This document shows positions 305 through 14,017 of a stretch of 29,813 nt of DNA, piece after piece. Made by a program: the position numbers and the translations under genes. The stretch covers positions 1-29,813 of the forward strand of contig CBILQL010000001.1 of NCBI GenBank assembly GCA_966238865.1, written 5' to 3'. The notes below the pieces were generated by a model. The model did not search any database. It saw nothing but the letters and a program-made list of their open reading frames with translations, and was not told the origin of the DNA. Numbering within the stretch: the first letter of the stretch is position 1; every line of letters begins with the position of its first letter. The DNA is from an uncultured bacterium (GTDB lineage: Bacteria; Fibrobacterota; Fibrobacteria; UBA11236).

Positions 305-988
305 TCAACGCAGGCTCCGGATCAGCTCGAAGGGTTCGGCGGCGTGGAAGCCCGCGACGGAGCCCCAGCGCACCGCGGCGGCCTCGACGGCCTTCAGGGA
401 TCGGGGATGGGGGAATCCGCAGACCTCGGTCGGGTAGCGGGAGAGCGCCTCGAGCTTGGCCGCCAGGCTGCCGCCGATGTCCACGAACACCTCCGGGCGG
501 AAGGGAGCGCCGACGCGGCCGAAGCCCCACTCCGTCGCGGAGTGGATCTCGAAGGCCAGCACCTCCTTGACGCAATGGCCGGGCTTGGGCCGCGTGGCCG
601 TCAGCACGGCACGGGCGACCACCTGGTGATCGACGTTCAGGTCGCCGCCGTGATGGGTGTAGACGATCTCCGGGGACAGGTCGGCGACCAGCTTCTCCAC
701 CGCCTTGACTACGTCGAGGAGCGGCAGCGAATCGAAGCGGTTGTCGGGCAGGCCGCCGAAGAAAACCTCCTTGACCCCGAGCGCGTCCGCGGCCCTGCGC
801 GCATCGGCCTCCAGGCCCCTCACCTTGCCCATGTCGGCGGACTCCCGGCTTCCGGCGCGGGAGGTGGCCCCTTCGCCCAGGATGGCCACGTAGACCTCGT
901 CCCCGCCGGCCGCGTGCCGGGCCATGGCTCCGCCGCATCCCAGAACCTCGTCGTCGGGATGGGCGGCCACGGTCAGGATCCGTTTCAT
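305..988 (-). CDS. PIG-L/LmbE family N-acetyl-sugar de-N-acetylase
   Basis: C-terminal 227 aa of track ORF 305..1477. MKRILTVAAHPDDEVLGCGG, HHGGDLNVDH and FPHPRS motifs. ATG at 988 overlaps the upstream stop (ATGA) and follows a GGAGGAGGAG RBS. Confidence 0.9.
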   Translation of the reverse strand: MKRILTVAAHPDDEVLGCGGAMARHAAGGDEVYVAILGEGATSRAGSRESADMGKVRGLEADARRAADALGVKEVFFGGLPDNRFDSLPLLDVVKAVEKLVADLSPEIVYTHHGGDLNVDHQVVARAVLTATRPKPGHCVKEVLAFEIHSATEWGFGRVGAPFRPEVFVDIGGSLAAKLEALSRYPTEVCGFPHPRSLKAVEAAAVRWGSVAGFHAAEPFELIRSLR

Positions 989-1686
989 GTCTCCTCCTCC
1001 TCCGGAGGGATGGGGGTGATGGTCACGTCGGCGGCGATGCGCCCGTCGTAGAGGGCGGCCCGCTTGAACCGGTAGCGGAAACCCCCGTGATCCAGGTAGG
1101 CGGCGGGATAGCCTTCCGCGTCCAGCATGCGGATGAAATCGTGGAGCGCGGCCGGGCTCCCCAGGGGCGGGATCTCGCTCTCCGAAGGCTTGCGGCGGGC
1201 AAAGAGGACCGGCTCCCCGGACTGCGCCTCCGGAACGGGCTCGCGGGCCGCGAGGTCGCGGATCATGTCGGCGGCCAGGCAGGCGGCCCGGATGTAGATC
1301 TCCTCCGCTCCCCCCTCCAGGGACAGGGGCCGCTTGGCGTAGACGGCCCCGGCGTCCATGGCCTCCGCCATGCGCAGGGCGGTGAGCCGCGTCTCCCTGT
1401 GCCCTCGGACGATGAGGTTCTGCAAGGGGCTGCCGCCGCGCCCGTACGGCACGTCGGTCATGTGGAAGCAGACGCATTCATGTGCGCCGGTGACGGACGC
1501 CGGAACCTTCCAGGACCAGTGCAGGAAGAAGAGGTAACGGGGCCGGTACGTACCCAGGTCGAAACCGGCCAGGGCCCCGGGGGAGTCCAGGTACTGCCAC
1601 CGGCCGGGCAGCCCCGCCAACCTCTCCTCGAACACGCGGCGGTTCCAGGGCTTGCAACCCAGGACCAGGTAGTTCTTCCCCTCCAT
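985..1686 (-). CDS. Formyltransferase (Fmt-fold, sugar N-formyltransferase type B)
   Basis: FLHWSW, CFHMTDVPYGRGGSPLQNLI and MDAG motifs plus an Fmt C-terminal-like FIRMLDAEGYP region. Start overlaps the upstream stop (TGATG). Confidence 0.85.
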   Translation of the reverse strand: MEGKNYLVLGCKPWNRRVFEERLAGLPGRWQYLDSPGALAGFDLGTYRPRYLFFLHWSWKVPASVTGAHECVCFHMTDVPYGRGGSPLQNLIVRGHRETRLTALRMAEAMDAGAVYAKRPLSLEGGAEEIYIRAACLAADMIRDLAAREPVPEAQSGEPVLFARRKPSESEIPPLGSPAALHDFIRMLDAEGYPAAYLDHGGFRYRFKRAALYDGRIAADVTITPIPPEEEET

Positions 1687-2447
1687 CAGCCGTCCTCGCC
1701 GTATTCCAGGCCGAGGCGCAGGTAGACCTTGCGGCCGCCGACGCGGATATAGGCCCCTTTGTACGGGGGGAAGGTCCGGGCGCGGATCACGTCCAGCAAC
1801 TCCTTGCCGCTATACATGCGATCCGGATGGATTTCGTCCACCCCGTCCACGTCCCGGGTGCGATGGTAGGTGCCCTTTTCCCCGGTTTGGGGCTTCCTCG
1901 GGGCCGTCCCCGCCTTCAGGGAGGGCCAGGTATCCTGGATCAGGGACAGGGAGGCGCGCTCCAGCTTCCGGTACAGGGTCTCTCCCGTGTCCACGGGCTC
2001 CGCCTCCACGCGCCGCTGGGCGATGAGGTCCCCGGTATCGATGCCGGGGTCGATGTAGTGCAGGGTGGTCCCCGAAGGGGTCCCTTCGATGATGCTCCAG
2101 ACGTTCGGGTATTGGCCGCGGTTGTAGGGCAGCAGCGCGGGATGCAGGTTCACCACGCCGCGGGGGAACAGGGAGATGAACTCCGGCTTCACCACGTAGT
2201 CGAAGAGCACCGAGAAGGCCAGATCGCATCGCAAGGAACGGATCGCCTCCAGCACCCCGGGATCCCCCAGGCGCGAACCGTCGAACACCTGTCGATCGGC
2301 GCCCCGGAACTCCGAGCGCATCTCCGCGCCGAATTTCCGCTTCGGCTCCGGATGCCAGACCAGGCCGGCCACGTCCTCGCCGGACTCCTCGAGCCATTAG
2401 AGCGCTTGCCATCCCAACCAATTATTGCCCAGCAAGAGGAGGCGCAT
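1686..2447 (-). pseudogene. Formyltransferase (sugar N-formyltransferase type A) interrupted by an in-frame TAA at codon 17 (2397-2399)
   Basis: ATG at 2447 overlaps the pseG stop (TGATG) and reads MRLLLLGNNWLGWQAL*WLEESGEDVAGLVWHPE in one frame. It continues into VNLHPALLPYNRG and HYIDPGIDTGD, the canonical formyltransferase N/H/D motifs. The stop may be a true nonsense allele or a base-call error. Confidence 0.8.
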
Positions 2448-3547
2448 CAACCGCTTTCCTCGCCGTCCAGGGCGGCGGCCACCCGGGCCGCGCCCCGTCC
2501 GTCGATCAGATCCCGGCCTTTGCCGGCCATCGCAGCCCTGGCCGGAGCCGAGTCCAGGAGGTCCCGGATTTCCGCGGCTATGCGCTGCGGGAGGAGGTCG
2601 GCATGCCAACCGAGGTTCACGCCCATCCCGTCCAGATCCAGCCTGGCGGCGATTTCCCGCTGGTTCTCCGCCACCACCACCAGCAGGGAGGGCAGTCCCG
2701 CGTGCATCAGCTCCCAGACCGTGCTTCCCGCGGCGGATACGGCGATGTCGGCCCAGCCCATCAGGCCGGGCATGTCCCGGACCTCCCTCTGCAAGGCGAA
2801 GTCCAGGTCGGGACGATCGGCCACGGCGGCCTCCAGGGAGGCCAGGTTGGGATTCACCATGCCCACCACGACCTTGACGGCCATTCCGGGGAAGGCGATG
2901 CCCTGCAGGGCGCGGATCACCCGCAAGGTGGCATTGTCCGGATCGCCGCCGCCCATGGTGACCAGGATATTCCTGGGATCCTCCGACGGGTCCCGTGGCG
3001 CGGATCCGGCTCCGGACCCGGCGGGCGGGGCGAGGAACTCCTTCCGGAGCATGGCGAAGCGGCTGCCCAGCAGGAGCGCGGCTCCCGGACGCCGCTCCCG
3101 ATACCAGCCTTCCCGGGCATGGATGTTCTGGTTCAGGATCAAGTCCGCCTCATAGGGCGCGCACTCCCCGTTGTCGTCGATGACGAGGAGGCGGACGCCC
3201 CCCTCCTTCAGGATGCGCTGGTAGGGCCCGGTGAAGGGGTATCCGTCGGTCACCACCGCCGCGGCCCCGAGCCGACGGGCCAGCGCAAGCGACTCCTCCG
3301 CATCCTCCCGGGAAGCCGGGGCGGACCGGATCCGGCTCGCCTCCACGCCTTCGGATCGCAGTCGCGCCTCCAGGGAGCCGGAAGCCCCGCCCAGTAGGAA
3401 ATGGGCTTTCCCGCCCCTGTCCATCCAGGCCTGCGCCAGCGCCAGGCAGCGCATGACATGCCCCGCCCCGATCCCGGCCCACGCGTCGGCGCGGATCAGG
3501 ATGGGCTTCGCCTCCCGGCCGGCCCCGCCCACGATGGACGCGTTCAT
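2447..3547 (-). CDS. pseG: UDP-2,4-diacylamido-2,4,6-trideoxy-beta-L-altropyranose hydrolase
   Basis: C-terminal 366 aa of track ORF 2447..5419. IRADAWAGIGAGHVMRCLALA, ILVTMGGGD and DIAVSAAGSTVWE match the GT-B-like PseG/SpsG family. ATGA overlap at 3544-3547. Confidence 0.88.
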   Translation of the reverse strand: MNASIVGGAGREAKPILIRADAWAGIGAGHVMRCLALAQAWMDRGGKAHFLLGGASGSLEARLRSEGVEASRIRSAPASREDAEESLALARRLGAAAVVTDGYPFTGPYQRILKEGGVRLLVIDDNGECAPYEADLILNQNIHAREGWYRERRPGAALLLGSRFAMLRKEFLAPPAGSGAGSAPRDPSEDPRNILVTMGGGDPDNATLRVIRALQGIAFPGMAVKVVVGMVNPNLASLEAAVADRPDLDFALQREVRDMPGLMGWADIAVSAAGSTVWELMHAGLPSLLVVVAENQREIAARLDLDGMGVNLGWHADLLPQRIAAEIRDLLDSAPARAAMAGKGRDLIDGRGAARVAAALDGEESG

Positions 3548-5607
3548 GGCTTCCTGAACACCGGCTGCACCGCCTCGCCTTCGAGGAACTTCCCGATGTC
3601 GCCGTCGCGCATGGCGGCGGCCACCACCTCCATCGCCGCGCGGTAGACGCGCAAGGTGTAGTCGATATCCTCGGGTCCGTGGCTGAAGCAGATATTGTGG
3701 AACCCGAGCTGGAGCACGCCCCGCTTGAGGCATTCCTGCTGGAATAGGCTCTTCACGATCAGGGAGTCCGCGCCCGAGGGATCCTTGAAGGAGGCCACGG
3801 TGCGGGCGGGCAGGCCCTGGAGGAAAAGCCGGTCGGACAGGCCGTAATGCGCGGACAGGATCTTGAACCCGTCGGCGAGGCGGCCGCCCTGCTCCCGCAG
3901 ATGCCCGATGACGTTCTTCTCCCGCATCTCCTCGAGGGTGGCCTTGGCCGCGCACAGGGAGAGGGCCTCGCCGCCGAAGGTGAAGGAGAAGAAGATCCTG
4001 TCCATCAGGGCCATGAGGTCCCGGGGTCCGGCGATGGCGGCCAGCGGGAAGCCGTTGGCCAGGGCCTTGCCGAAGCAGGCCAGGTCCGGGGTCACGCCGA
4101 AATATTCCTGCGCGCCGCCCGGCGCGAGCCGGAAGCCGGTGATGACCTCGTCGAAGACCAGGAGCGCCCCGTTCCTGCGGGCGATGTCCTTCACCTTCCC
4201 GAGGAAACCCTCCGCGGGCGGGATGGCCCCGATGGGCTCCAGGATCACGGCGGCGATCCGCCCCGGATGCTCGGCGAAGAGCTTCTCCAGGCTGGCCGGA
4301 TCGTTGTAGTTGAAATGGTGGATGAGAGCTTGGGTGGATGCCGGGACGCCCAGGTTGCGGGTGGTGGAGCCGATGTACCAATCCTGCCAGCCATGGTAGC
4401 CGCAGCAGGCCACGTGCTCGCGGCCGGTATGCGCCCGCGCGATGCGGATGGCGCCGGCCGTCACGTCCGACCCGTTCTTCCCGAAGCGCACCATCTCGGC
4501 GCAGGGGACCATGTCCACGATGAGCTCGGCGACCTCCACCTCCAGGGGATGCGGGAGCGAATAGCTGACGCCCTTCTTGAGCTGCCTTTCGACGGCCTGG
4601 TTCACCCTGGGATATCCGTATCCCAGGATGACGGGGCCGAGGCCCAGGATATAATCCACGTATTCGTTGCCGTCCACGTCCTTGACGCGGCAGCCAGTCC
4701 CCTCCTCCAGGAAGATGGGCGCCACGCCCTGGACGAACTGGTTGTATCCCTTGCTGAAGGTCTGGGTGCAGGACGGGATCAGTGCCTCGGCCTTCCGCTT
4801 CCACGCCAGGCTCTTCGCCAGGGATCTTTCGAGCGGCTTCATGGCCGGCTCCGCGGCCAGAGACTTGTAATACCCTTCGTTGCGTACCGTGCCCATGTTC
4901 AACTCCTCGAGCGCCGGCTCCTTCGCCAGCAATGCCAGGACGTCCTCCATCCCGAAACCGTCGCCGCGGCCCAGCCGTCCGTATACCGCCCGCACGAACT
5001 CCAGATCGCCCGGGTCGTCCACGGTCCAGCGCAGGTCGCGGGCGGACAGGTCCTCGGGGCTCTCCACGTTGCGGATCCGGAACCGGCCCGCGTCCTTGAG
5101 GAAGGGGGTCACGTGCTCGCGCTCGGCCGGCTGCCGTGCCTCCTTCCAGGCCCTTTCCAGGGCCTCGAACGAGAAGACCTCGGTGTCCAGGCCGTCCGGG
5201 TAGGTGTAGCGGAGGGTATTGGAGACGTAGTCGAGGCCGCCGTCCAGGTAAACCCTCACCACCTTGTCCACCACGGACGGGTCGAGCAGCGGGCAATCGG
5301 CGGTGATGCGCACCACGACGTCCGCCCCTTGGGCCTTGGCCGCCTGATAGTACCGGTCCAGCACGTCCGTCTCGCTGCCGCGGTGGAATCCGTACCCCTC
5401 GGCGGCGCACCAGTCGCAAATGGGATCATCGGCTTCGGAACCCGTGGTGGCGACCACCACGACATCCAGCGACGGCGCCCGGCTGGCCCGGTCCAGCACA
5501 CGGCCCAGCATTGCGCGGCCGCCGACATCCATCAGCACCTTGCCGGGCAGGCGCGTGGAGCCCATGCGGGCCTGCACGACCGCGACGACTCTCGGTTTCC
5601 CGGGCAT
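3544..5607 (-). CDS. Fusion: SpsF/PseF-like cytidylyltransferase + class-III (GSA-aminomutase-like) PLP aminotransferase
   Basis: Start MPGKPRVVAVVQARMGSTRLPGKVL (ATG 5607, GGAGG RBS). The N-domain has RITADCP and RWTVDD. The C-domain has DVDGNEYVDYILGLG, FGKNGSD, FDEVITGFR and FGKALANG (PLP lysine). Confidence 0.9.
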   Translation of the reverse strand: MPGKPRVVAVVQARMGSTRLPGKVLMDVGGRAMLGRVLDRASRAPSLDVVVVATTGSEADDPICDWCAAEGYGFHRGSETDVLDRYYQAAKAQGADVVVRITADCPLLDPSVVDKVVRVYLDGGLDYVSNTLRYTYPDGLDTEVFSFEALERAWKEARQPAEREHVTPFLKDAGRFRIRNVESPEDLSARDLRWTVDDPGDLEFVRAVYGRLGRGDGFGMEDVLALLAKEPALEELNMGTVRNEGYYKSLAAEPAMKPLERSLAKSLAWKRKAEALIPSCTQTFSKGYNQFVQGVAPIFLEEGTGCRVKDVDGNEYVDYILGLGPVILGYGYPRVNQAVERQLKKGVSYSLPHPLEVEVAELIVDMVPCAEMVRFGKNGSDVTAGAIRIARAHTGREHVACCGYHGWQDWYIGSTTRNLGVPASTQALIHHFNYNDPASLEKLFAEHPGRIAAVILEPIGAIPPAEGFLGKVKDIARRNGALLVFDEVITGFRLAPGGAQEYFGVTPDLACFGKALANGFPLAAIAGPRDLMALMDRIFFSFTFGGEALSLCAAKATLEEMREKNVIGHLREQGGRLADGFKILSAHYGLSDRLFLQGLPARTVASFKDPSGADSLIVKSLFQQECLKRGVLQLGFHNICFSHGPEDIDYTLRVYRAAMEVVAAAMRDGDIGKFLEGEAVQPVFRKP

Positions 5608-5609
5608 TC

Positions 5610-6611
5610 TCAAACCTCCCCTTCCAGGCGGATGGCCCGCCCCTCGACGGACGATCGTTTCGCCGCCATCGCCACGTCGAGTACGCGCCGCGCCTCGAAA
5701 ACGTCCTGGCAGGACCTCGCGGCGCCCTCCAGGCAGTCCAGGAAATGCCTTAATTCGTCGAGGTACATCACGTTGGGGTTCCATCCTTCCGGGAGGGGGA
5801 AATCCTCCCAGGCCCCGGCGGCCTTGCGCCACAGGCGGACTCCCGAAGCGGCGTCCCACCGCAGCGTGCCTTCCGAGCCGATGATATGGCAGGTGCGGCT
5901 GTAGACCCGCTGGAGATAGTCCATGTGGACTTCGCCCACCGCGCCGCCGCGGAACTTGAGGATCAGGGAAGCCATGTCCTCGGTGTCGATTTCCAGGCAT
6001 CCGGTGCGCGCGGCGTGGCAGGACACCTCCGCCACTTCGCCGGCGAGCCAGCGCACATAATCGATCTCGTGGATGTCGTCCAGGATCACGCCGCCGCCCA
6101 GGCGGGCGTTTGCGCTGTACCCTTTGCGGTAATCCTCCCAGGGGTGCCAGTCCGGCAGGTACTGGCCGAACTCGGCCCGCACCGCCAGCGTGCGGCCGAT
6201 GGCTCCGGACTCCAGCAGCTCCTTCGCCCTGCGCAGGCCCGGATGGAATCGGAGGTTGCATCCGACCAGGGTGACCAGGCTCCTGGAGCGGACCTCGCGC
6301 AGCAGCTCGTCGAGCCCGGCCATTTCGTGCGCCAGGGGCTTCTCGATGAAGAGGGGGCAGCCCCTGCGCGCGGCGTCCAGGGCGGGCGCGACGTGGAAAC
6401 TGGTGGGCGTGGTGACGAAGACCGCCTCAGGCTCCGCGGCCCAGGCAGCGGCCGGATCGGCGAAAGCTTGCACGCCTAGCTTTTCCCGGATTTCGACGCA
6501 GCGGTCCTCCCGGGTATCCAGGGCGAGCACCTCCTGGCCCAGGGCGAGGAGGTTGCCCATGTGCCGCCTGCCGATGGAGCCGCCGCCGATGACGAGGAAC
6601 CGCCGCTTCAT
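5610..6611 (-). CDS. Gfo/Idh/MocA family NAD(P)-dependent oxidoreductase
   Basis: Rossmann GGGSIG, EKP, and GGGVILDDIHEIDY motifs. Confidence 0.9.
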   Translation of the reverse strand: MKRRFLVIGGGSIGRRHMGNLLALGQEVLALDTREDRCVEIREKLGVQAFADPAAAWAAEPEAVFVTTPTSFHVAPALDAARRGCPLFIEKPLAHEMAGLDELLREVRSRSLVTLVGCNLRFHPGLRRAKELLESGAIGRTLAVRAEFGQYLPDWHPWEDYRKGYSANARLGGGVILDDIHEIDYVRWLAGEVAEVSCHAARTGCLEIDTEDMASLILKFRGGAVGEVHMDYLQRVYSRTCHIIGSEGTLRWDAASGVRLWRKAAGAWEDFPLPEGWNPNVMYLDELRHFLDCLEGAARSCQDVFEARRVLDVAMAAKRSSVEGRAIRLEGEV

Positions 6612-6620
6612 TGTCGGGAC

Positions 6621-7826
6621 CTATCCGGCATGATCCGCGAGCACCCGGGTAACCGTCGTGACAACCCTTTCGACATCCTCATCCTGCATGCCGTGGTACA
6701 TGGGCAGACTCAGGATCTCCTCGTAAGCCGCCTCGGCGACGGGACATAGACCCTCCCGGGTGCCGAAAGCCTTGCGGTAGAAAGGCTGCAGGTGGACCGG
6801 AAAATAGTGGACATTGGCACCGATGCCGGCCTTGCGCAGCTCGGCGAAGGCGCCGGCGCGATCGATCGCCAGCCGGTCCAGCGCCAGCCGCACCACGTAG
6901 AGGTGGTAGGCATGGCGCGCCTCGGCGGACCCCGCGAGGGGCCGAAGCAGGGGCGCCGGCGAACCGGGGCTGGAGGCGAAGGCGCCGTCGTAGCGGCCGG
7001 CGATCCGCCGGCGTCGCTCAAGCCAGGCCGGCAGCTTGCTGAGCTGGCTGGCGCCCAGGGCGCATTGGAAATCCGTGATGCGGTAGTTGTAGCCCAGCTC
7101 CTCCATCGCGTAGGCGAAGGTCCCCTTCTCCGTGCGCTGCCGGTGATCGGTGGAGATGCCGTGGTTGCGGAAGCGCTTCATGCGCCGGGCCAGATCGGGA
7201 TCGTCGGTGACGGCCATGCCGCCCTCCCCCGTGGTCACGTGCTTGACCGGATGGAAGCTGAAGAGGGTGATATCGGCCAGCGAGCCCACCTTGCGGCCGC
7301 GGTATTCCGCGCCCAGGGCATGGCAGGCGTCGGCGATCAGCCGCAAGCCCCGGCGATCGGCCAGCGCCCGCAGGGCCTGGTAGTCGCAGGGCTGTCCGGC
7401 GTAATCCACCGCCAGGATGGCTTTGGTCCGGGGCGTGACGGCCGCCTCCACCGCGGCAGGATCGAGGAGGAGGGATCCGTCCAGCACGTCGGCGAACATC
7501 GGACGGCCCCTCTGGAACACCACCGCGTTGGCCGTGGCCACGAAGGTGATGGGGGGGACGATGACCTCGTCCCCCTCCCCGATGCCGATGGCCTCCATGG
7601 CCATGTGCAGGGCGGCGGTCCCGTTGCAGACGGCAACGCCGTGCCTGGCGCCGGAGAATTCCGCCACCGCCTCCTCGAATCGATCGACGCTCGGACCCGT
7701 CGTCAGCCAATCGCCTTCGAGGACCCGCACCACCGCTTCGATGTCGTCGGGCCCGATGCTCTGGCGTCCGTAGGGGATGGCCTTGGGAGGATCCGCCTTC
7801 CCACGCCCGGTGTTCTCATGCATCAT
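6621..7826 (-). CDS. pseC: UDP-4-amino-4,6-dideoxy-N-acetyl-beta-L-altrosamine transaminase (DegT/DnrJ family)
   Basis: IPYGRQSI N-terminus, DACHALGA, FSFHPVKHVTTGEGG (PLP lysine), GYNYRITDFQCALG; pseB/pseG/pseI context. Start could be 7823. Confidence 0.9.
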   Translation of the reverse strand: MMHENTGRGKADPPKAIPYGRQSIGPDDIEAVVRVLEGDWLTTGPSVDRFEEAVAEFSGARHGVAVCNGTAALHMAMEAIGIGEGDEVIVPPITFVATANAVVFQRGRPMFADVLDGSLLLDPAAVEAAVTPRTKAILAVDYAGQPCDYQALRALADRRGLRLIADACHALGAEYRGRKVGSLADITLFSFHPVKHVTTGEGGMAVTDDPDLARRMKRFRNHGISTDHRQRTEKGTFAYAMEELGYNYRITDFQCALGASQLSKLPAWLERRRRIAGRYDGAFASSPGSPAPLLRPLAGSAEARHAYHLYVVRLALDRLAIDRAGAFAELRKAGIGANVHYFPVHLQPFYRKAFGTREGLCPVAEAAYEEILSLPMYHGMQDEDVERVVTTVTRVLADHAG

Positions 7827-10800
7827 AGTACGTCCTGAAATTCGCCAGCAGGCCGGGGTCCACGGCTATCGCATCCGGGAACCGTGTAGGCTCCGCGTCG
7901 GACAGGCGCGTGGCGTACCGGCCGGTCACCCCGCAATGCACGCCGGTGCCGTCCATGCCGATGTTGTCGATGTGCGATACCGTGGGATAGATGAAATGCC
8001 CGCGGTTGAGGTAGACCGTCAGCACCCAGTTGAGGGTCCAGACGTCCTTTGTGGTCCCCTGCAGGATGCCGTTCAGGGTCAGGGGGATGTCGCTCCCCCC
8101 CTGTGCCAGATCGATGCCGCGATCCAGGGCCTCGCGGGTCGCTTTGCGCAGGTCGCGCTCCAGCTTGCTCCAGGCGCGCTTCCAGGTGGCCCAGCCCCAG
8201 CTGCCGATGCGCGGCAGGAAATACAGGTCGTAGGGATAGCGCGCCAGCAGGGGCTCCGGGACGTTGACGGTATATCCGGAAATCCCGAAGACCTCCTCCC
8301 GGTCCCGGTAATGGGTGAGGGTCTTCCGCATGAATTCGAAGAAGCGCTTCTGGGGCACGCAATCGTCCTCCAGGAGGATGACGGTCTCGTGGCTTTCCAG
8401 GAGGCCGTCCACGGCGCCCATGATCGAGCGGGCCAGCCCGCGGTTCTCGGAGGCCTCGTGGATTTGGGGCCGCGTCCAGTCCACCGCACGGCAGAGCTTG
8501 CGGGTCCTTTCGACGGCCTCGGCATCCGCCCCGTTCCTCGCGCCGTCGCAGAAGATGTGGATGTTCCTGGCCCCCGAGTCCTTCAAGGCCGCGAGGACGC
8601 GGGCGGTGTGCTCTGGCCGCTTGTAGGCGACCAGCGCCACCGGAATGTCGTCCAGATCCATCGGCAGGCCGCGGGAGACCGCCGGCGCGGAGGCGGCCGG
8701 GGACGGCGCAGCCTTCCAGCCGTCCTCCGCGGATCGCGGGGTGGACGGCGGCGGAGCCGCAGGGTCCTTGCCGCGCGCGGCGACGATGCGAACCTGGTAG
8801 TTCCCGTTCCTCGCGGCGTGCTCGCGGCAGGCGCGGTGGAAGCCCTCTTCCCCGCGGGATTCCCAGACGGAGGCGTAGTCTGGAGGCCATTGGTGCTGGA
8901 CGTTCTCCGCGGCGAGGACCTCGAAACCGGCCGTTGCGAAGAGGTTCCCCAGGGTCATGGGATTCCAGGTGTACAGGTGCTTGTTCACGTCGGCAGGGTC
9001 GTAGGCGATCTGCGGGCCATCATGGGGGACCACGAACACGGCCCTGCCGCCGGGCTTCAGCTTCCGGCGCAGCAGCCGGAGGACTTCGAGGGGGGATTCC
9101 ACGTGCTCCAGGGCATGGTTGGAGACGATAACGTCGGCGCAGGCGTCCGGCAGATCGGCGGGGCTCTCGACGGCGTCGATGCCGCGCTCGATGGAAGCCT
9201 CCTTGCGTGCGACCTCGTTGATTTCCACGCCCAGCTTGGCCGCCCCCGGAAGGTTGCGCAGCAGGTACCCTCCCCCGCTGCCGAAGTCTATCACGGTATC
9301 GCCGGTCTTGACGTGGTCCCGGAACTTGAACAGGTTCGCGGCGCCGCCGAAGGCTCCCACCGATTTCTGCCACCGGAAGTAATCCTTCCCGTAGTACCCG
9401 CCCCCGCCCCCGGTAGCGGATTCCGCGCGGGCTTCCCCGGCGGGGTCCGCGCCGCGCGGGGCCCGCGCCGGCGCTCCGCCCGAGTCCCCGCCGGAACGGG
9501 AGAGGTGATGCGATGCCTGATCGGGGTGCACGGGATAGGACACGCGCGTGGCCTCCTGGAACTCGACCCTCGCTTCGTCCCGCTTGTCCTGGGCCAGGAG
9601 CAGGATGCCGTTCCAGAGGTGCAGGTGGCCGTCCATGGCCGCGTCCTTCCCGAGCATGCAGCGCAGGGTGGTCGCCAGAGCCTCGGGCAGCCGGCCGATG
9701 ATCAGCTCCTGCTGCAGGATGCGTCCGCGCTCGGCGGCCGGGGCCGAGGCGAACCCCAGGCTGTCGCGCATGGCCTGGAAAAGGGCGCCGCCTTCCCGGT
9801 AGGTCCGGGACAGTTCGTCGATCCAATGCGAGGCGAAGGAGAAGCCGAGGCGCGTCCTCCCGCGGGCGAACGGGCGGCCGGGCACCTTGCGCCCGCAGGT
9901 GAGGGTTTCGACCTGCCTGTGATCGGCCAGCAGCGGGCCGGCATGCTCGAGCCAGACCCGCCAGGGGCCGGGCCACCCGGGCTCCACGTCATGGAAGGCG
10001 ATCCAGCCGCCGTCCTTGACGAAGGGGTAGATCAGCTCGAAATCCTTGAGCACGTCGATATATTCGTGCGACGCGTCGATGAAGACGAAATCCAGCATGG
10101 GCCGCGACGACCAGGTGGGAAGCACGTCGTAGGTGAACCCCTTGAGGCCCTCGCAATGCCCCTCCACGCCCAACCGCTTCAGGTTGCCGAGACATTCCTG
10201 GTAGAAGTCGTGGGACTTGCCCATGATGCCGTCGTTGCCGCAGAAGGTGTCGATGGAATAGATGCGCTTGTCGCTGCCCATGCAGGCCAGGGCCATTGCG
10301 CTGGTGGACCGGCCCCGGTCCGCCCCCATCTCCAGGATATGGCCACCCTCCGGAACGGCCTTGGCCATTTCGAAGAGGAACTTCTCCTGCCCTTCGAGGA
10401 GCCATCCGGAGACGCTCTCCACCAGGGGCCGCGCCTCCTCGTAGGTGGCGTAGACCTTCTCCCGCGCGAAAGGATTACCCGGGACCGCGGACCAGCCGGT
10501 GGTTACGGGCCGCGGAACGGGGGCGGAGGCGTGCTTGGCCTCGCCCCCGGCATTCCCCTTCCAGCCCATGCCTTCGGCCATCCCGCGGACCTCCGCGTCC
10601 CCGGAGTTCCGGTCCAGGTAATGGGCCAGCATGGACAGGGCGGTGTCGGAGTCCCCCATCTGGCGGAGGAGGTCGGCGCTCCCCAGGATGGAGACCCTGT
10701 CGTAGGGATCGCGTTCCAGCCTGTCCGCGTAGGTGAGGAGCGCCTCCTTCACGGCGAGGTCGTCGGCCGGCGCCGCGGCGCGCGCCTCCCCCGGGAGCAT

Positions 10801-11418
10801 GGCCGGCGCTGCCACGGACGGCGGGTGGATGGTCAGCTGGGGAAGCCGGGTCTTGTGCACGCAGCTGTTCTCCTTACGCTCGTAGAAGGTGTTGAAGAAG
10901 AGGGCCGAGAAGTCCGCGGGGGATTCCAGGGAGAAGGCGTCCATGTATTCGCACACCGTCTGCAGGAAGGCGCGCCGCATCACGAAGAGCGCAAGCAGCT
11001 GGCCCGGATCCCGGAGGGCCGGGAAAGCCCTCGTGGCGGAGTCGAAGTCGGCCATGTCGGCCGCTGCCGTGAGGATCTCCCCGACCACCCTGCCGCCGCC
11101 GTCCGCCAGGCGGGCCGCCCAGGCCACGACCTGGAGGTCGAGCTCCTCCGACGCGCCGAATATCCCCACACTGCGATCCAGCATGCCCTCGTCCACGTCC
11201 ACGTTGTCCGGGGCCACGTACACGAACTCCCCTTCGGCCCGCGCCATCCCGGATTGCAGCGCCTCCGAGATTTCCTTGGAACCCGCGCCGGGCGGGAAGG
11301 CGACCTCTATGAACTGCAGGTTCCTATGCCGCGAACGCCTCAAGCTCGCGGCGGAACGGGATTCGCCGCGCGTCCCGTTCCCGCCGGAAACCAGCAATAC
11401 CGATATCAGGGGTTCCAT
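7816..11418 (-). CDS. ~1200-aa multidomain protein: degenerate GT2-like domain, TPR-like segment, class I SAM methyltransferase, TPR-like segment, second SAM methyltransferase, C-terminal GT-A glycosyltransferase
   Basis: Likely start ATG 11418 (MEPLISVLL) after GGGAGG; the track start is 11463. MT1: ILEMGADRGRS, FIDASHEY, GGWIAFHD. MT2: VIDFGSGGG, NHALEHV, LKPGG. GT: PVALVAYKRPEH, IFCDG, NRGLARS, ILLEDD, FGISGY. Confidence 0.8.
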   Translation of the reverse strand: MEPLISVLLVSGGNGTRGESRSAASLRRSRHRNLQFIEVAFPPGAGSKEISEALQSGMARAEGEFVYVAPDNVDVDEGMLDRSVGIFGASEELDLQVVAWAARLADGGGRVVGEILTAAADMADFDSATRAFPALRDPGQLLALFVMRRAFLQTVCEYMDAFSLESPADFSALFFNTFYERKENSCVHKTRLPQLTIHPPSVAAPAMLPGEARAAAPADDLAVKEALLTYADRLERDPYDRVSILGSADLLRQMGDSDTALSMLAHYLDRNSGDAEVRGMAEGMGWKGNAGGEAKHASAPVPRPVTTGWSAVPGNPFAREKVYATYEEARPLVESVSGWLLEGQEKFLFEMAKAVPEGGHILEMGADRGRSTSAMALACMGSDKRIYSIDTFCGNDGIMGKSHDFYQECLGNLKRLGVEGHCEGLKGFTYDVLPTWSSRPMLDFVFIDASHEYIDVLKDFELIYPFVKDGGWIAFHDVEPGWPGPWRVWLEHAGPLLADHRQVETLTCGRKVPGRPFARGRTRLGFSFASHWIDELSRTYREGGALFQAMRDSLGFASAPAAERGRILQQELIIGRLPEALATTLRCMLGKDAAMDGHLHLWNGILLLAQDKRDEARVEFQEATRVSYPVHPDQASHHLSRSGGDSGGAPARAPRGADPAGEARAESATGGGGGYYGKDYFRWQKSVGAFGGAANLFKFRDHVKTGDTVIDFGSGGGYLLRNLPGAAKLGVEINEVARKEASIERGIDAVESPADLPDACADVIVSNHALEHVESPLEVLRLLRRKLKPGGRAVFVVPHDGPQIAYDPADVNKHLYTWNPMTLGNLFATAGFEVLAAENVQHQWPPDYASVWESRGEEGFHRACREHAARNGNYQVRIVAARGKDPAAPPPSTPRSAEDGWKAAPSPAASAPAVSRGLPMDLDDIPVALVAYKRPEHTARVLAALKDSGARNIHIFCDGARNGADAEAVERTRKLCRAVDWTRPQIHEASENRGLARSIMGAVDGLLESHETVILLEDDCVPQKRFFEFMRKTLTHYRDREEVFGISGYTVNVPEPLLARYPYDLYFLPRIGSWGWATWKRAWSKLERDLRKATREALDRGIDLAQGGSDIPLTLNGILQGTTKDVWTLNWVLTVYLNRGHFIYPTVSHIDNIGMDGTGVHCGVTGRYATRLSDAEPTRFPDAIAVDPGLLANFRTYYDA

Positions 11419-11461
11419 GCGCCTCCCATGGGGATGGGTACCATTCCAATGAATTCCATCC

Positions 11462-11491
11462 ATTCTATGAAATCGGGGATTTGGAATTCAA
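11462..11491 (-). promoter_or_regulatory. Putative sigma70 promoter for the glycosylation operon
   Basis: Minus strand TTGAAT (11491-11486), N18, TAGAAT (11467-11462), about 45 nt upstream of ATG 11418. Confidence 0.6.
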
Positions 11492-11623
11492 CGCGCGAGG
11501 CGGGCCCGCGGGATGGCGGTTCCCCGCTTAGGTTTTTTGAGGGCGGCCGCCCCTTCCCCAACTTCCTCAATCCCGGCGGACGCGGGCCTCTGCAGTCTCC
11601 GGTAGCGGATGGATCGACGGGCA

Positions 11624-11632
11624 TGCTATCCT
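11624..11632 (+). promoter_or_regulatory. Putative extended -10 element for pseB
   Basis: TGCTATCCT fits TGnTAnnnT, 36 nt upstream of ATG 11669. The same TGCTAnnnT pattern occurs before three other genes in the window. Confidence 0.45.
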
Positions 11633-11668
11633 AGGAAAATGAGCATGGAGCGAGGGAACGGAGAGTTC

Positions 11669-12793
11669 ATGGATCTGACCAACAAATCGATTCTCGTGAC
11701 GGGAGGAACAGGTTCGTTCGGCCAGAAGTTCCTGCGGATGACCCTGGAACGCTTCACCCCCGCCCGCGTCGTCGTGTATTCGCGCGACGAGATGAAGCAA
11801 TGGGACATGGCCAACGCCTTCAAGAACCACCCCAAGAAGGATCTGATCCGCTTCTTCATCGGCGACGTGCGCGACAAGGAGCGGCTGCACCGCGCCTTCA
11901 GCGGCATCGACTTCGTGATCCACGCCGCCGCCGTCAAGATAGTCCCGGCCGCGGAATACAACCCGTTCGAGGCCATCAAGACGAACATAAACGGCGCCAT
12001 GAACATCATCGATTGCGCCATCGACCAAAAGGTGAAGCGCGTGGTGGCGCTCAGCACCGACAAGGCGTGCAATCCCGTGAACCTCTACGGCGCCACCAAA
12101 CTCTGCTCCGACAAGCTCTTCGTCGCCGGCAACAGCTACGGAGGCCACGGGGAAACCCGCTTCGCCGTGGTCCGCTACGGCAACGTGATGGGCAGCCGCG
12201 GCTCTATCATCCCGCTTTTCCTGTCCCTGGCCCGCACCAGGGAGATCCCCATCACCGACACGCGCATGACGCGCTTCATGATCACCCTGGATCAGGGCGT
12301 GGAGCTGGTCTGGCACGCCTTGGCCAATGCCGTGGGCGGCGATATCTACGTGCGGAAGATCCCTTCCATGAAGCTTCCGGACATCGCCCAGGCCTGCGCC
12401 CCCGGCGCGAAGCTCCGGATCATCGGTGTCCGCCCCGGGGAGAAGCTGCACGAGCAGATGATCAGCGTCGAGGACGCGGAGCATACCTGGGAGTACAAAT
12501 CCCATTACAAGATCCTGCCCTCCATCAACGGATGGGACAAGGACCCCCGCCGCATCGGGAACGGACGGAAATGCCCGGACGGGTTCTTCTATACCAGCGA
12601 CAACAACACGCAGTGGCTGTCCATCCCGGAGCTGAGGGCCTGGATGATCAAGGAGGCCACCCACCCGCACGGCATCCTCAAGGCCGAGGCCGAACTGGCC
12701 AGGAAGCTGGGCGACCCCGGCGCCGAAGGCAAGGAGGACTGGTCGCCGGACGCAAAATCCGCCGCTCCGCAGGATTCCTCCCTGCCGCGTTGA
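11669..12793 (+). CDS. pseB: UDP-N-acetylglucosamine 4,6-dehydratase (inverting)
   Basis: MDLTNKSILVTGGTGSFG, HAAAVKIVP, STDKACNPVNLYGATKL, VRYGNVMGSRGS, GVRPGEKLHE. Start 11669 is preferred to the track start 11609. Confidence 0.92.
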   Translation: MDLTNKSILVTGGTGSFGQKFLRMTLERFTPARVVVYSRDEMKQWDMANAFKNHPKKDLIRFFIGDVRDKERLHRAFSGIDFVIHAAAVKIVPAAEYNPFEAIKTNINGAMNIIDCAIDQKVKRVVALSTDKACNPVNLYGATKLCSDKLFVAGNSYGGHGETRFAVVRYGNVMGSRGSIIPLFLSLARTREIPITDTRMTRFMITLDQGVELVWHALANAVGGDIYVRKIPSMKLPDIAQACAPGAKLRIIGVRPGEKLHEQMISVEDAEHTWEYKSHYKILPSINGWDKDPRRIGNGRKCPDGFFYTSDNNTQWLSIPELRAWMIKEATHPHGILKAEAELARKLGDPGAEGKEDWSPDAKSAAPQDSSLPR

Positions 12794-12838
12794 CGCCTCC
12801 CCGGGGCCCCGGGGAATTTGCTACGTTGACGCCTCCCC
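12788..12838 (+). repeat. 15-bp direct repeat enclosing an 18-bp perfect palindrome
   Basis: CGTTGACGCCTCCCC at 12788-12802 and 12824-12838; TCCCCGGGGCCCCGGGGA at 12798-12815. Confidence 0.9.
12819..12827 (+). promoter_or_regulatory. Putative extended -10 element for the RlmI-like gene
   Basis: TGCTACGTT, 11 nt before ATG 12839. Confidence 0.4.
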
Positions 12839-14017
12839 ATGGAAATCCCCACTGTCCAGATCAATGCCGATCGGACGAAAAGCATCCTGGCCGGCCATCC
12901 CTGGATCTTCTCCGGCGCCCTGGCCCGAAAACCCGAGGTCCCGGACGGATCCCTGGTCCGCGTCCTGGCGGGAAAAGGGTTCCTGGGCGTGGGCTATTAC
13001 AACAGCCGCACCGACATCGCCATCCGGCTGCTCACGCGTCGCGACGAGGCCGTGGACGCGGGATTCTTCGAAGGGCGTTTCCGGGAGCTCCGCCGCCGCA
13101 AGGAAGCCTGGCTGCCGCCGGACACCGACGCCTACCGCGCCGTCTTCGGCGAGGCCGACGGACTGCCCGGACTCGTGGTCGATCGCTACGCCGGCGTCCT
13201 GTCCGTCCAGTTCCATACCGCCGGCATGGAGGCGCTCAAACCCCTGGTGCTGCAGGGCCTGTTGGAAGCCCATTCGCCAGCCTCGGTGGTGGAACGCAGC
13301 GACGTCGGCGCCCGGCGGGCCGAAGGGTTGGAACCCCTGCCCCCGGCGCTCCTGCACGGGGCGCCCGTGCGCGAGACGGAGATCCGGGAGCAGGGCTTCA
13401 GGTTCGTCGTGGACGTGATGGAAGGCCAGAAGACGGGTTTCTTCCTCGACCAGCGCGAGAATCGCAAGGCGTTGACCCGCTTCTGCGTCGGCCGGAGCGT
13501 CCTCAATTGCTTCAGCTATTCCGGCGGCTTCTCGGTGTACGCCGCCTCGGCGGCCCGCCGGGTGGTGAGCGTGGACATCTCCAAGGCGGCGATCGGGCTC
13601 GCGCGCCGGAATTTCGCGCTGAACGGGTTCCCCGCGCCGGAGGGGGACTTCGTCGCCGCCGACGTGTTCGACCACCTGAAAGGGCTGGAGAAGGGCGCCT
13701 TCGATCTCATCCTCCTCGACCCCCCGTCCTTCGCCAAGAACCGCAGGCAATTGCCCAACGCCATCAAGGCCTATACCAGCCTCAACCAGTTGGCCCTGGA
13801 GAAGCTGCCCGAAGAGGGCATCCTCGTCTCCTCCTCCTGCACTTCCCATGTGGATCAGGGCACCTTCATCAAGATCCTGCACCAGAGCGGCGTGCTGGCG
13901 AAATGCTCGTTGCGCGTCCTGGATTCGCGGGAGCAGCCCTTCGATCATCCCTACCACCTCTCGTTCCCCGAAGGCCGCTACCTCAAATTCTTCGTGCTCC
14001 AGAAAAGCGCGCTTTGA
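12839..14017 (+). CDS. rlmI: RlmI/YccW-like rRNA m5C methyltransferase (PUA + class I SAM domain)
   Basis: GHPWIFS, FGEADGLPGLVVDRY, GQKTGFFLDQRENR, LNCFSYSGGF, LDPPSF, EGRYLKF. Confidence 0.85.
   Translation: MEIPTVQINADRTKSILAGHPWIFSGALARKPEVPDGSLVRVLAGKGFLGVGYYNSRTDIAIRLLTRRDEAVDAGFFEGRFRELRRRKEAWLPPDTDAYRAVFGEADGLPGLVVDRYAGVLSVQFHTAGMEALKPLVLQGLLEAHSPASVVERSDVGARRAEGLEPLPPALLHGAPVRETEIREQGFRFVVDVMEGQKTGFFLDQRENRKALTRFCVGRSVLNCFSYSGGFSVYAASAARRVVSVDISKAAIGLARRNFALNGFPAPEGDFVAADVFDHLKGLEKGAFDLILLDPPSFAKNRRQLPNAIKAYTSLNQLALEKLPEEGILVSSSCTSHVDQGTFIKILHQSGVLAKCSLRVLDSREQPFDHPYHLSFPEGRYLKFFVLQKSAL

Follow-up and report, generated by a model that had tools for sequence, protein, structure and literature searches.

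Why should an operon for the synthesis of pseudaminic acid (Pse) that already carries pseC, the C4 aminotransferase normal to the pathway, encode another aminotransferase, and why should the latter be fused to a cytidylyltransferase (CT) and stand behind an oxidoreductase? The question is raised by the window described here, which is the entire 29.8-kb contig CBILQL010000001.1 (29,813 nucleotides) of GCA_966238865.1, a metagenome-assembled genome (MAG), 84% complete, of an uncultured member of the Fibrobacterota. Its minus strand carries, in this order, a 1215-residue open reading frame (ORF) with two methyltransferase domains, pseC, the gene for an oxidoreductase of the Gfo/Idh/MocA family (Gfo), a gene joining a CT to a class-III aminotransferase (AT3; the fusion is written CT::AT3), pseG, two formyltransferase genes (FT1 and FT2), a PIG-L deacetylase gene and pseI. 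An original prediction, made from this DNA, held that the oxidoreductase and the aminotransferase install an extra amine on the nonulosonate, with C8 as the obvious site. We find that the three-enzyme module is real and widespread, and we put at roughly one in two the probability that Gfo and CT::AT3 form a three-activity tailoring-and-activation module of the Pse pathway, which would convert the C8 hydroxyl to an amine and supply the activation with cytidine monophosphate (CMP).

The anatomy of the genes and the families to which they belong can be observed directly. At a G+C content of ~68% the window contains numerous spurious ORFs, from which the genuine frames were told by their third-position G+C; between pseC and pseI successive genes either overlap or are separated by at most 14 nucleotides. 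The Gfo gene ends in a TGA stop (5612-5610), which is followed by ‘ga’ and then by the ATG of the fusion at 5607, confirming the coordinates and the 2-nucleotide gap from which the original prediction had set out. A GGAGG Shine-Dalgarno sequence lies just 5' of this ATG, and at its far end the TGA of the fusion is overlapped by the ATG of pseG (ATGA). The frame of the fusion (3544-5607) is open, with zero internal stops, and contains the Pfam domains CTP_transf_3 (PF02348, residues 8-172, 100.5 bits) and Aminotran_3 (PF00202, residues 296-588, 174.5 bits against a gathering score of 30.5). The protein collection contains thousands of relatives that match over the full length at 59-65% identity, and the linker joining the domains is conserved (alignment A1), which confirms that the fusion is a genuine gene and no artefact. 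A 905-residue ORF listed at 3544-6261 was discarded, being merely an in-frame upstream extension of the fusion that crosses the Gfo gene.

The relatives are filed as ‘GSAM / SpsF’ (JGI) or ‘aminotransferase class III-fold’ (NCBI), as the earlier remark on hemL-like database names had anticipated, and if these names were followed the C-terminal domain would be the glutamate-1-semialdehyde aminomutase (GSAM, or HemL) of the cell. The closest curated model is indeed one named ‘GSAM’ (NF004856, PRK06209), which AT3 (residues 258-686) matches over nearly its whole length at 431.9 and 434.8 bits, below the cut-off of 486, and the best matches in the Protein Data Bank (PDB) are GSAMs as well (~208 bits to the solved enzymes). 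The two proteins share a fold subgroup, and Lys514 (in an FGK motif) and Asp486 (in a DEV motif) of AT3 align with the catalytic lysine, which binds pyridoxal phosphate (PLP), and the catalytic aspartate of GSAM. However, AT3 remains under every hemL cut-off, scoring 266.5 and 268.2 bits against the 527.3 demanded by TIGR00713, and the residues specific to GSAM are gone: in an alignment to the Synechococcus enzyme (3FQ8) the position of Glu406 is taken by a non-conserved Gln adjoining a 6-residue deletion, and the lid (gating) loop is 9 residues shorter. A true hemL also coexists with the fusion, since a canonical gene (612-640 bits, above the cut-off) is found elsewhere in four of four other fusion-bearing genomes and contig C7 of the window's MAG ends in a hemL fragment, while the fusion gene itself sits nearly always within Pse operons. 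Judged by its sequence, the AT3 half is not HemL, and we attach next to no probability to that identity. Unfused relatives, ~430 residues long, are present in several phyla according to an ESM Atlas look-up. PseB, PseC and PseG each score above their own NCBIfam equivalog cut-offs (Table 1); with PseC identified in this way, AT3 is, as predicted, a second aminotransferase beside it.

The CT half had been described as SpsF/PseF-like, and of these two names the first fits better. The fold is of the SpsF type and complete, with PDB entry 6OEW (‘cytidylyltransferase’) matching residues 7-234 at E 9e-38, the nucleotide-binding motifs RLPGK and DCP are present, and JGI names the N-terminal half of the relatives SpsF. 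Identity with canonical PseF (TIGR03584) was rejected on a score of 21.5 bits against a cut-off of 205.7. Nor was a match at PseF level found in the 84%-complete MAG of the window; of five further holders of the fusion whose contigs are large, four likewise gave none and one gave two NeuA-like matches under the cut-off. A CMP-activating enzyme is required in any Pse pathway. The fused CT is therefore the only candidate CMP-nonulosonate synthetase in most of these genomes and most likely, on this sequence evidence, the sole CMP-activating enzyme of the pathway.

Precedents for such a role exist among stand-alone enzymes. The gene of Caulobacter FlmC, which has ‘no homology to PseF’, lies directly upstream of flmD/pseG, and a six-gene set that includes flmC sufficed for flagellin glycosylation in Escherichia coli (PMC7591256), while a Bacillus subtilis spsF mutant accumulates legionaminic acid (Leg) that is not transferred (PMC7439481). 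Genetics thus links cytidylyltransferases other than PseF with CMP activation of Pse or Leg, and by analogy the fused CT, which precedes pseG as flmC does, may act likewise. The likeness is one of naming and gene position, and FlmC and SpsF differ from the fusion in having neither an aminotransferase nor an oxidoreductase partner.

Synteny across genomes, which is also a matter of direct observation, ties the three activities together. In data with one genome per species, 545 of the 600 pattern matches listed encode a relative, and at least that many species genomes carry the fusion, with pseC and pseG almost always on either side of its place in the operon. When the proteins of the window were searched by tblastn against the best 80 species loci, the commonest order proved to be pseB, pseC, Gfo, CT::AT3, pseG, pseI, with a relative of Gfo directly upstream of the fusion in 71 loci, pseG in 67 and pseI in 55. 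In this survey oxidoreductase, CT and AT3 behave as one conserved unit within Pse operons. The 80 loci span many phyla and groups, with the largest share in Acidobacteriota and others in Thermodesulfobacteriota, Dehalococcoidia, Verrucomicrobiota, Planctomycetota, Omnitrophota, Bdellovibrionota, a cyanobacterium and a Clostridia MAG; the sole cultured holder listed is Desulfatibacillum alkenivorans DSM 16219. AT3 was found in only 2 of 296 genomes of the window's own phylum, for which reason the module was probably gained there by transfer.

The Gfo protein has an N-terminal Rossmann domain and a C-terminal domain (PF01408, 63 bits; PF22725, 86.5 bits; PF02894, 52.6 bits), an EKP motif with Lys91, a DxxH motif with His181, and PDB 3EZY as its best solved relative (94.6 bits). 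It invites comparison with ElaA from Acinetobacter baumannii KL49, a Gfo/Idh/MocA enzyme proposed to form 8-keto CMP-Leg, which the short-chain dehydrogenase/reductase (SDR) ElaC would then reduce on the way to 8-epi-legionaminic acid; its catalytic residues were named as Lys91 and His181 and its nearest solved relative as 3EZY, the mechanism having been derived by docking of CMP-Leg and not from assays (PMC13656337). That the two residues bear the same numbers in the window protein, and that 3EZY is nearest to both, is suggestive only. In the Ela system as proposed, oxidation of the C8 hydroxyl of a CMP-nonulosonate by a Gfo/Idh/MocA enzyme takes place beside a CT and a further enzyme by which the ketone is resolved, an arrangement that the window would share. 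The differences are that the sugar is Leg and not Pse, that ElaB is a CT of the PseF/NeuA type and that the second enzyme is an SDR reductase; ElaA is known to us by its description.

Perhaps the most telling observation, and one that is new with respect to the original prediction, is the exchange of this oxidoreductase for another. In loci without Gfo (L020, L048 and L050) an aldo/keto reductase (AKR) adjoins CT::AT3, and this AKR is ~60% identical to that of a different type of locus in which a CT::AKR fusion and an SDR occupy the same slot. When the L048 enzyme is compared with the AKR domains in the best 120 CT::AKR fusions listed (~555 residues, CT first and AKR second), the identity is 58-65%, and the contigs bearing one such fusion (P0133) read pseB, pseC, CT::AKR, SDR, two further genes and NeuB, so that the pair fills the position of the window's module. 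As an AKR of the L048 type occurs both in AT3 loci and in loci with CT::AKR and SDR, the AKR or Gfo enzyme is best taken as the step common to both, which would be an oxidation. Matches to the SDR are near-absent from the CT::AT3 loci (distant and non-adjacent in just 2 of the 80, L027 and L042), which makes SDR and AT3 look like alternatives; the window itself has neither an EpaB-like SDR nor an AKR.

The chemistry of the CT::AKR and SDR pair is known in A. baumannii, where EpaA (CTP_transf_3 and Aldo_ket_red, 542 residues) and the SDR EpaB (262 residues) turn Pse5Ac7Ac into 8-epi-Pse5Ac7Ac, as was shown by nuclear magnetic resonance (PMC12053666). In both EpaA and the window a CTP_transf_3 domain other than PseF is fused to a tailoring enzyme whose partner is an NAD(P) oxidoreductase, C8 of Pse being the site of action in the Epa system and the expected one here, and EpaA-like pairs of CT::AKR and SDR take the same position after pseC in related loci. 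In the window, however, the CT is joined to a class-III aminotransferase and not to an AKR, the oxidoreductase is of the Gfo/Idh/MocA family, and the expected outcome is an amine rather than an epimer; EpaA, too, is known to us from its description only. By analogy, then, the window module would work like an EpaA/EpaB-type system, of which it is not a member since it has neither the AKR nor the EpaB-like SDR.

EpaA/EpaB-like pairs (a 550-residue CT::AKR followed by a 276-residue SDR; L088-L090, 8001-10476) are chromosomal and common in Pse loci from soil metagenomes, and nearly all of the best 120 listed CT::AKR relatives share that architecture, which places the prophage-borne Epa genes of A. 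baumannii within a much larger family. A phage collection searched with the CT domain for an EpaA-like gene gave just one match, in a marine virus, together with kdsB genes.

Two single ORFs carry all three parts, P0111 (1038 residues, Gfo-CT-AT3) and P0230 (1030 residues, AKR-CT-AT3); each is represented by a single sequence and could stem from read-through between neighbouring genes, so neither is used as strong evidence. In the three loci from Pseudobdellovibrionaceae (L025 8443-9987, L030 3812-5398 and L032 7977-10010) the fusion is preceded by neither Gfo nor AKR, and the genes upstream encode a protein of 515-678 residues with no Pfam match. A second protein, of ~620 residues and no assigned family, is encoded 3' of the fusion; in L032 its gene comes next, whereas in L025 and L030 a reverse-strand pseI intervenes.

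We propose the following mechanism, in which all the chemical steps, the modified carbon and the amino donor are what we infer from the arrangements above. The Gfo/Idh/MocA enzyme would oxidise the C8 hydroxyl of the nine-carbon sugar with NAD(P)+ to a methyl ketone, AT3 would transaminate the 8-ketone to 8-amino-8-deoxy Pse, a 5,7,8-triamino nonulosonate, and the SpsF/FlmC-type CT domain would give the CMP-sugar donor. Oxidation of the C8 hydroxyl would be the step performed in common by AKR or Gfo, and the neighbouring enzyme would decide the outcome, an SDR leading to the 8-epimer and AT3 to the 8-amine; that the shared oxidoreductase makes a C8 ketone is the most likely reading of the exchange. 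Such a ketone, standing beside the C9 methyl, would have the methyl ketone shape that is classic for class-III transaminase substrates. A comparable logic is found in KdnB and KdnA of Shewanella, which make Kdo8N by oxidising an alcohol and then transaminating with PLP at the terminal-side hydroxyl of an ulosonic acid. There, as proposed here, oxidation and PLP-dependent transamination replace a hydroxyl on an ulosonic acid by an amine; the Kdn sugar differs in having eight carbons, the group modified is a primary alcohol (via the aldehyde), the oxidase belongs to another family and no CT is fused. By analogy with these systems, the module would extend a known kind of pathway, the tailoring of nonulosonates at C8 via a ketone, by having an aminotransferase where those systems have the reductase. 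The extra-amine claim of the original prediction is thereby supported in part, the choice of C8 having been strengthened by the likeness to EpaA/EpaB and ElaABC. Somewhat short of an even chance, in our estimate, is the fuller proposition that the module is a hitherto undescribed route to 8-amino-8-deoxy-pseudaminic acids, present here in a formylated variant, and includes the first class-III aminotransferase known to act on a nonulosonate.

The carbon itself is not named by anything in the sequences, and the hydroxyls at C4 and C8 would be the sole free ones on Pse. By the established structure of the sugar the C4 hydroxyl is the only other free secondary one, so that the oxidoreductase and AT3 might instead yield a 4-amino nonulosonate. 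We regard this as quite improbable, as the studied relatives of the parts (EpaA/EpaB and ElaA/ElaC) all concern C8, the only known sugar of the class with an extra amino group bears it at C8, and a ketone at C4, next to the 3-deoxy position, would be expected to favour loss of a C2 substituent.

It may also be asked whether the oxidoreductase and AT3 act on the nine-carbon sugar at all, or whether their target is a hexose intermediate, or their product an aminated precursor or side chain for later attachment, leaving the CT alone to serve the Pse pathway. A hint in this direction comes from G279, a complete genome from the same taxonomic family as the window, in which a different cassette (L086, G279:C1:3538000-3557900, ~7470-13800 on the minus strand) encodes an SpsF-like CT, a transketolase split into N and C halves, a class-III aminotransferase 51% identical to that of the window, an SDR, a HAD hydrolase, NeuB and a fatty-acid-hydroxylase-like protein. 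The 20 kb fetched around it contain no pse genes; the cassette may be a pathway to a different ulosonic acid, and the company in which its CT and aminotransferase lie suggests that a smaller sugar is aminated there. A side chain would also help with the Aeromonas glycan discussed below, of which 88 Da are unaccounted for. Most loci of the module, however, contain no enzyme that could attach a side chain, and at the stage of the UDP-hexose the oxygen of the future C8 would be held in the ring, and an amine at the future C6 position would block the pyranose. The tie of the oxidoreductase and AT3 to the CT, including the triple ORFs with the caveat of read-through given above, also fits action on the substrate or product of the CT, and we hold a precursor, side chain or hexose as the true target to be unlikely.

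Two sugars described in the literature are candidate products of a C8-aminating module. The O-polysaccharide of Tenacibaculum maritimum contains 5,7-diacylamido-8-amino-3,5,7,8,9-pentadeoxy-manno-nonulosonic acid (PMC3210612), which substantiates the earlier statement that an 8-amino nonulosonate is known from a bacterial O-polysaccharide. The paper on the O-antigen of the type strain does not describe NeuB, CT or class-III aminotransferase genes (PMC9796276), and our literature search found no other paper linking Tenacibaculum to pse genes, nor did it find a triamino nonulosonate or a characterised class-III aminotransferase in Pse pathways. Flagellin glycosylation islands of Aeromonas subgroup IA consist of pseB, pseC, an AKR, pseF, a class-III aminotransferase, pseG and pseI, the AKR and the aminotransferase being the ‘only’ two extra genes (PMC7874193). 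According to that description the gene order is the same as in our loci, with unfused parts (pseC, AKR, the CT called ‘pseF’, class-III aminotransferase, pseG, pseI), and the differences are that the genes are separate and that an AKR stands instead of Gfo. Aeromonas hydrophila AH-1, which is listed in subgroup IA, decorates its polar flagellin with just one Pse-like sugar, of 403 Da and unsolved structure (oxonium ion at m/z 404), some fragments of which are one m/z unit off the fragments given by a Pse derivative (PMC4691044). An odd nominal mass indicates, by the nitrogen rule, an odd number of nitrogens, against the two in Pse5Ac7Ac (316 Da); the mass of the AH-1 sugar therefore fits an added amine, which is not proof of one.

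The same odd mass bears on whether AT3 adds nitrogen at all. Together with the oxidoreductase it could epimerise or shift an amine already present, or exchange an amine for a hydroxyl, and a stereoisomer or a deaminated nonulosonate would result. Racemases and epimerases belong to the class-III fold, as does the aminomutase GSAM, the PDB matches of AT3 include a C-6' epimerase/aminotransferase and an isoleucine 2-epimerase, its top sequence models are aminomutase models, and AKRs and many Gfo enzymes are ketoreductases. AT3, however, has not retained the Glu406 and lid loop of GSAM, the AH-1 sugar would contain an extra nitrogen, and for the AKR that EpaA-type loci have in common with these, a common oxidation is the best reading. 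A non-aminating AT3 thus seems to us an outside possibility, and net amination at C8 the better explanation.

Several points weigh against amination at C8 by this module and temper our confidence in it. AKRs mostly work as reductases, and between the CT of the window and that of a CT::AKR fusion the identity is only 30%. The AT3 family is not bound to one substrate, as the occurrence of CT and AT3 in the quite different G279 cassette, away from pse genes, makes plain. Plain 8-amino-Pse5Ac7Ac would have a mass of 315 Da, leaving 88 of the 403 Da of the AH-1 sugar unexplained. A second GNAT was found in just 19 of the 80 loci and no acyltransferase for the third amine is universally conserved, so the new amine may be left free, or an enzyme encoded elsewhere may acylate it. 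EpaA, ElaA, FlmC and SpsF were likened to the parts of the window from published descriptions and not by sequence, and the literature search turned up no characterisation of any member of the module. Lastly, the fusion architectures do not decide whether CMP is attached before or after oxidation and amination: the docking of CMP-Leg in the ElaA paper speaks for activation first, whereas EpaA adds its own CT in strains that also have a canonical CMP-Pse synthetase (psaA-F), which suggests that tailoring may precede activation.

In the window itself the editing of the N-groups appears to take a particular form. FT1, FT2 and PIG-L fill positions 305-2372 of the minus strand, between pseG and pseI, where PseH would normally be, and no PseH-type GNAT is encoded in the operon; the sugar is thus probably N-formylated instead of N-acetylated. 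About half of the pseG genes in the 80 loci are ~500 codons long, and the one example checked is fused to a GNAT (PseH) domain, whereas the loci that have FT1 show a short pseG ORF with the GNAT domain missing, from which it appears that FT1 probably substitutes for the PseH acetyltransferase. FT2 and PIG-L are candidates, by family, for further editing of N-groups. In the SugarBase preprint, CMP-nonulosonates in which one amine is formylated and one free are reported as products of a Kuenenia cluster that encodes both a deacetylase and a formyltransferase.

Nonulosonic acids shape how hosts, phages and antibodies recognise bacterial surfaces, flagella and capsules. If C8 amination is what the module does, hundreds of species in many phyla, most of them uncultured, would produce triamino sugars resembling sialic acids, some of these sugars could bear a free, positively charged amine, and thousands of entries named ‘glutamate-1-semialdehyde aminomutase’ would be misnamed. 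The comparison also suggests a rule for reading such clusters, by which one shared oxidoreductase would produce the C8 ketone and its neighbour would set the result, an epimer with an SDR and an amine with a class-III aminotransferase. The module is a concrete candidate for the genes behind both the 8-amino sugar of T. maritimum, a pathogen of fish, and the 403-Da flagellin sugar of AH-1, and the Aeromonas link makes it testable in a cultured strain.

Table 1 Features of the Pse locus in the window, with the evidence for each assignment
Feature	Position	Strand	Evidence and remarks
pseC, C4 aminotransferase normal to the pathway	6621..7826	-	TIGR03588, 448 bits against a cut-off of 423.5; stops 9 nucleotides ahead of the Gfo start
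Gfo/Idh/MocA NAD(P) oxidoreductase, 333 residues; proposed nonulosonate C8-OH dehydrogenase	5610..6611	-	PF01408, PF22725, PF02894
CT::AT3 fusion, single 687-residue ORF; SpsF-type CT and class-III aminotransferase	3544..5607	-	Both domains match Pfam
CT domain core, residues 8-172; proposed CMP-nonulosonate synthetase	5092..5586	-	PF02348; whole fold to ~residue 234
AT3 domain (GSAM-like), residues 258-686; proposed transaminase of the 8-keto intermediate	3550..4836	-	NF004856; PLP Lys514 at 4066-4068
pseG, UDP-sugar hydrolase, no GNAT domain fused	2447..3547	-	TIGR03590, 208.8 bits against a cut-off of 153.55
FT1, sugar N-formyltransferase	1686..2372	-	PF00551 and PF18216
FT2, second formyltransferase-like protein	985..1686	-	PF21553; formyltransferase models match weakly
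PIG-L family deacetylase, 227 residues from an internal ATG	305..988	-	PF02585
pseI (pseudaminic acid synthase), truncated to its 5' part where the contig ends	1..290	-	TIGR03586, positions 2-67
pseB, pointing away from the operon	11609..12793	+	TIGR03589, 497 bits against a cut-off of 407.75

Some neighbouring genes deserve mention. The 1215-residue ORF directly upstream of pseC (7816-11463, minus strand) has a G+C bias of the coding type and two S-adenosylmethionine-dependent methyltransferase domains (residues 377-493 and 719-851), with ~700 residues that match no family; it could be a multi-domain enzyme that modifies or transfers the glycan. A few kilobases downstream of the module, 35 of the 80 loci have an ORF of ~585 residues with no Pfam match (e.g., L079 7601-9373), which may encode the transferase for the sugar. 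EpaA-like loci likewise carry an unannotated ORF of similar size, 542-584 residues (L088 10625-12253; L089 and L090 at 10499-12253).

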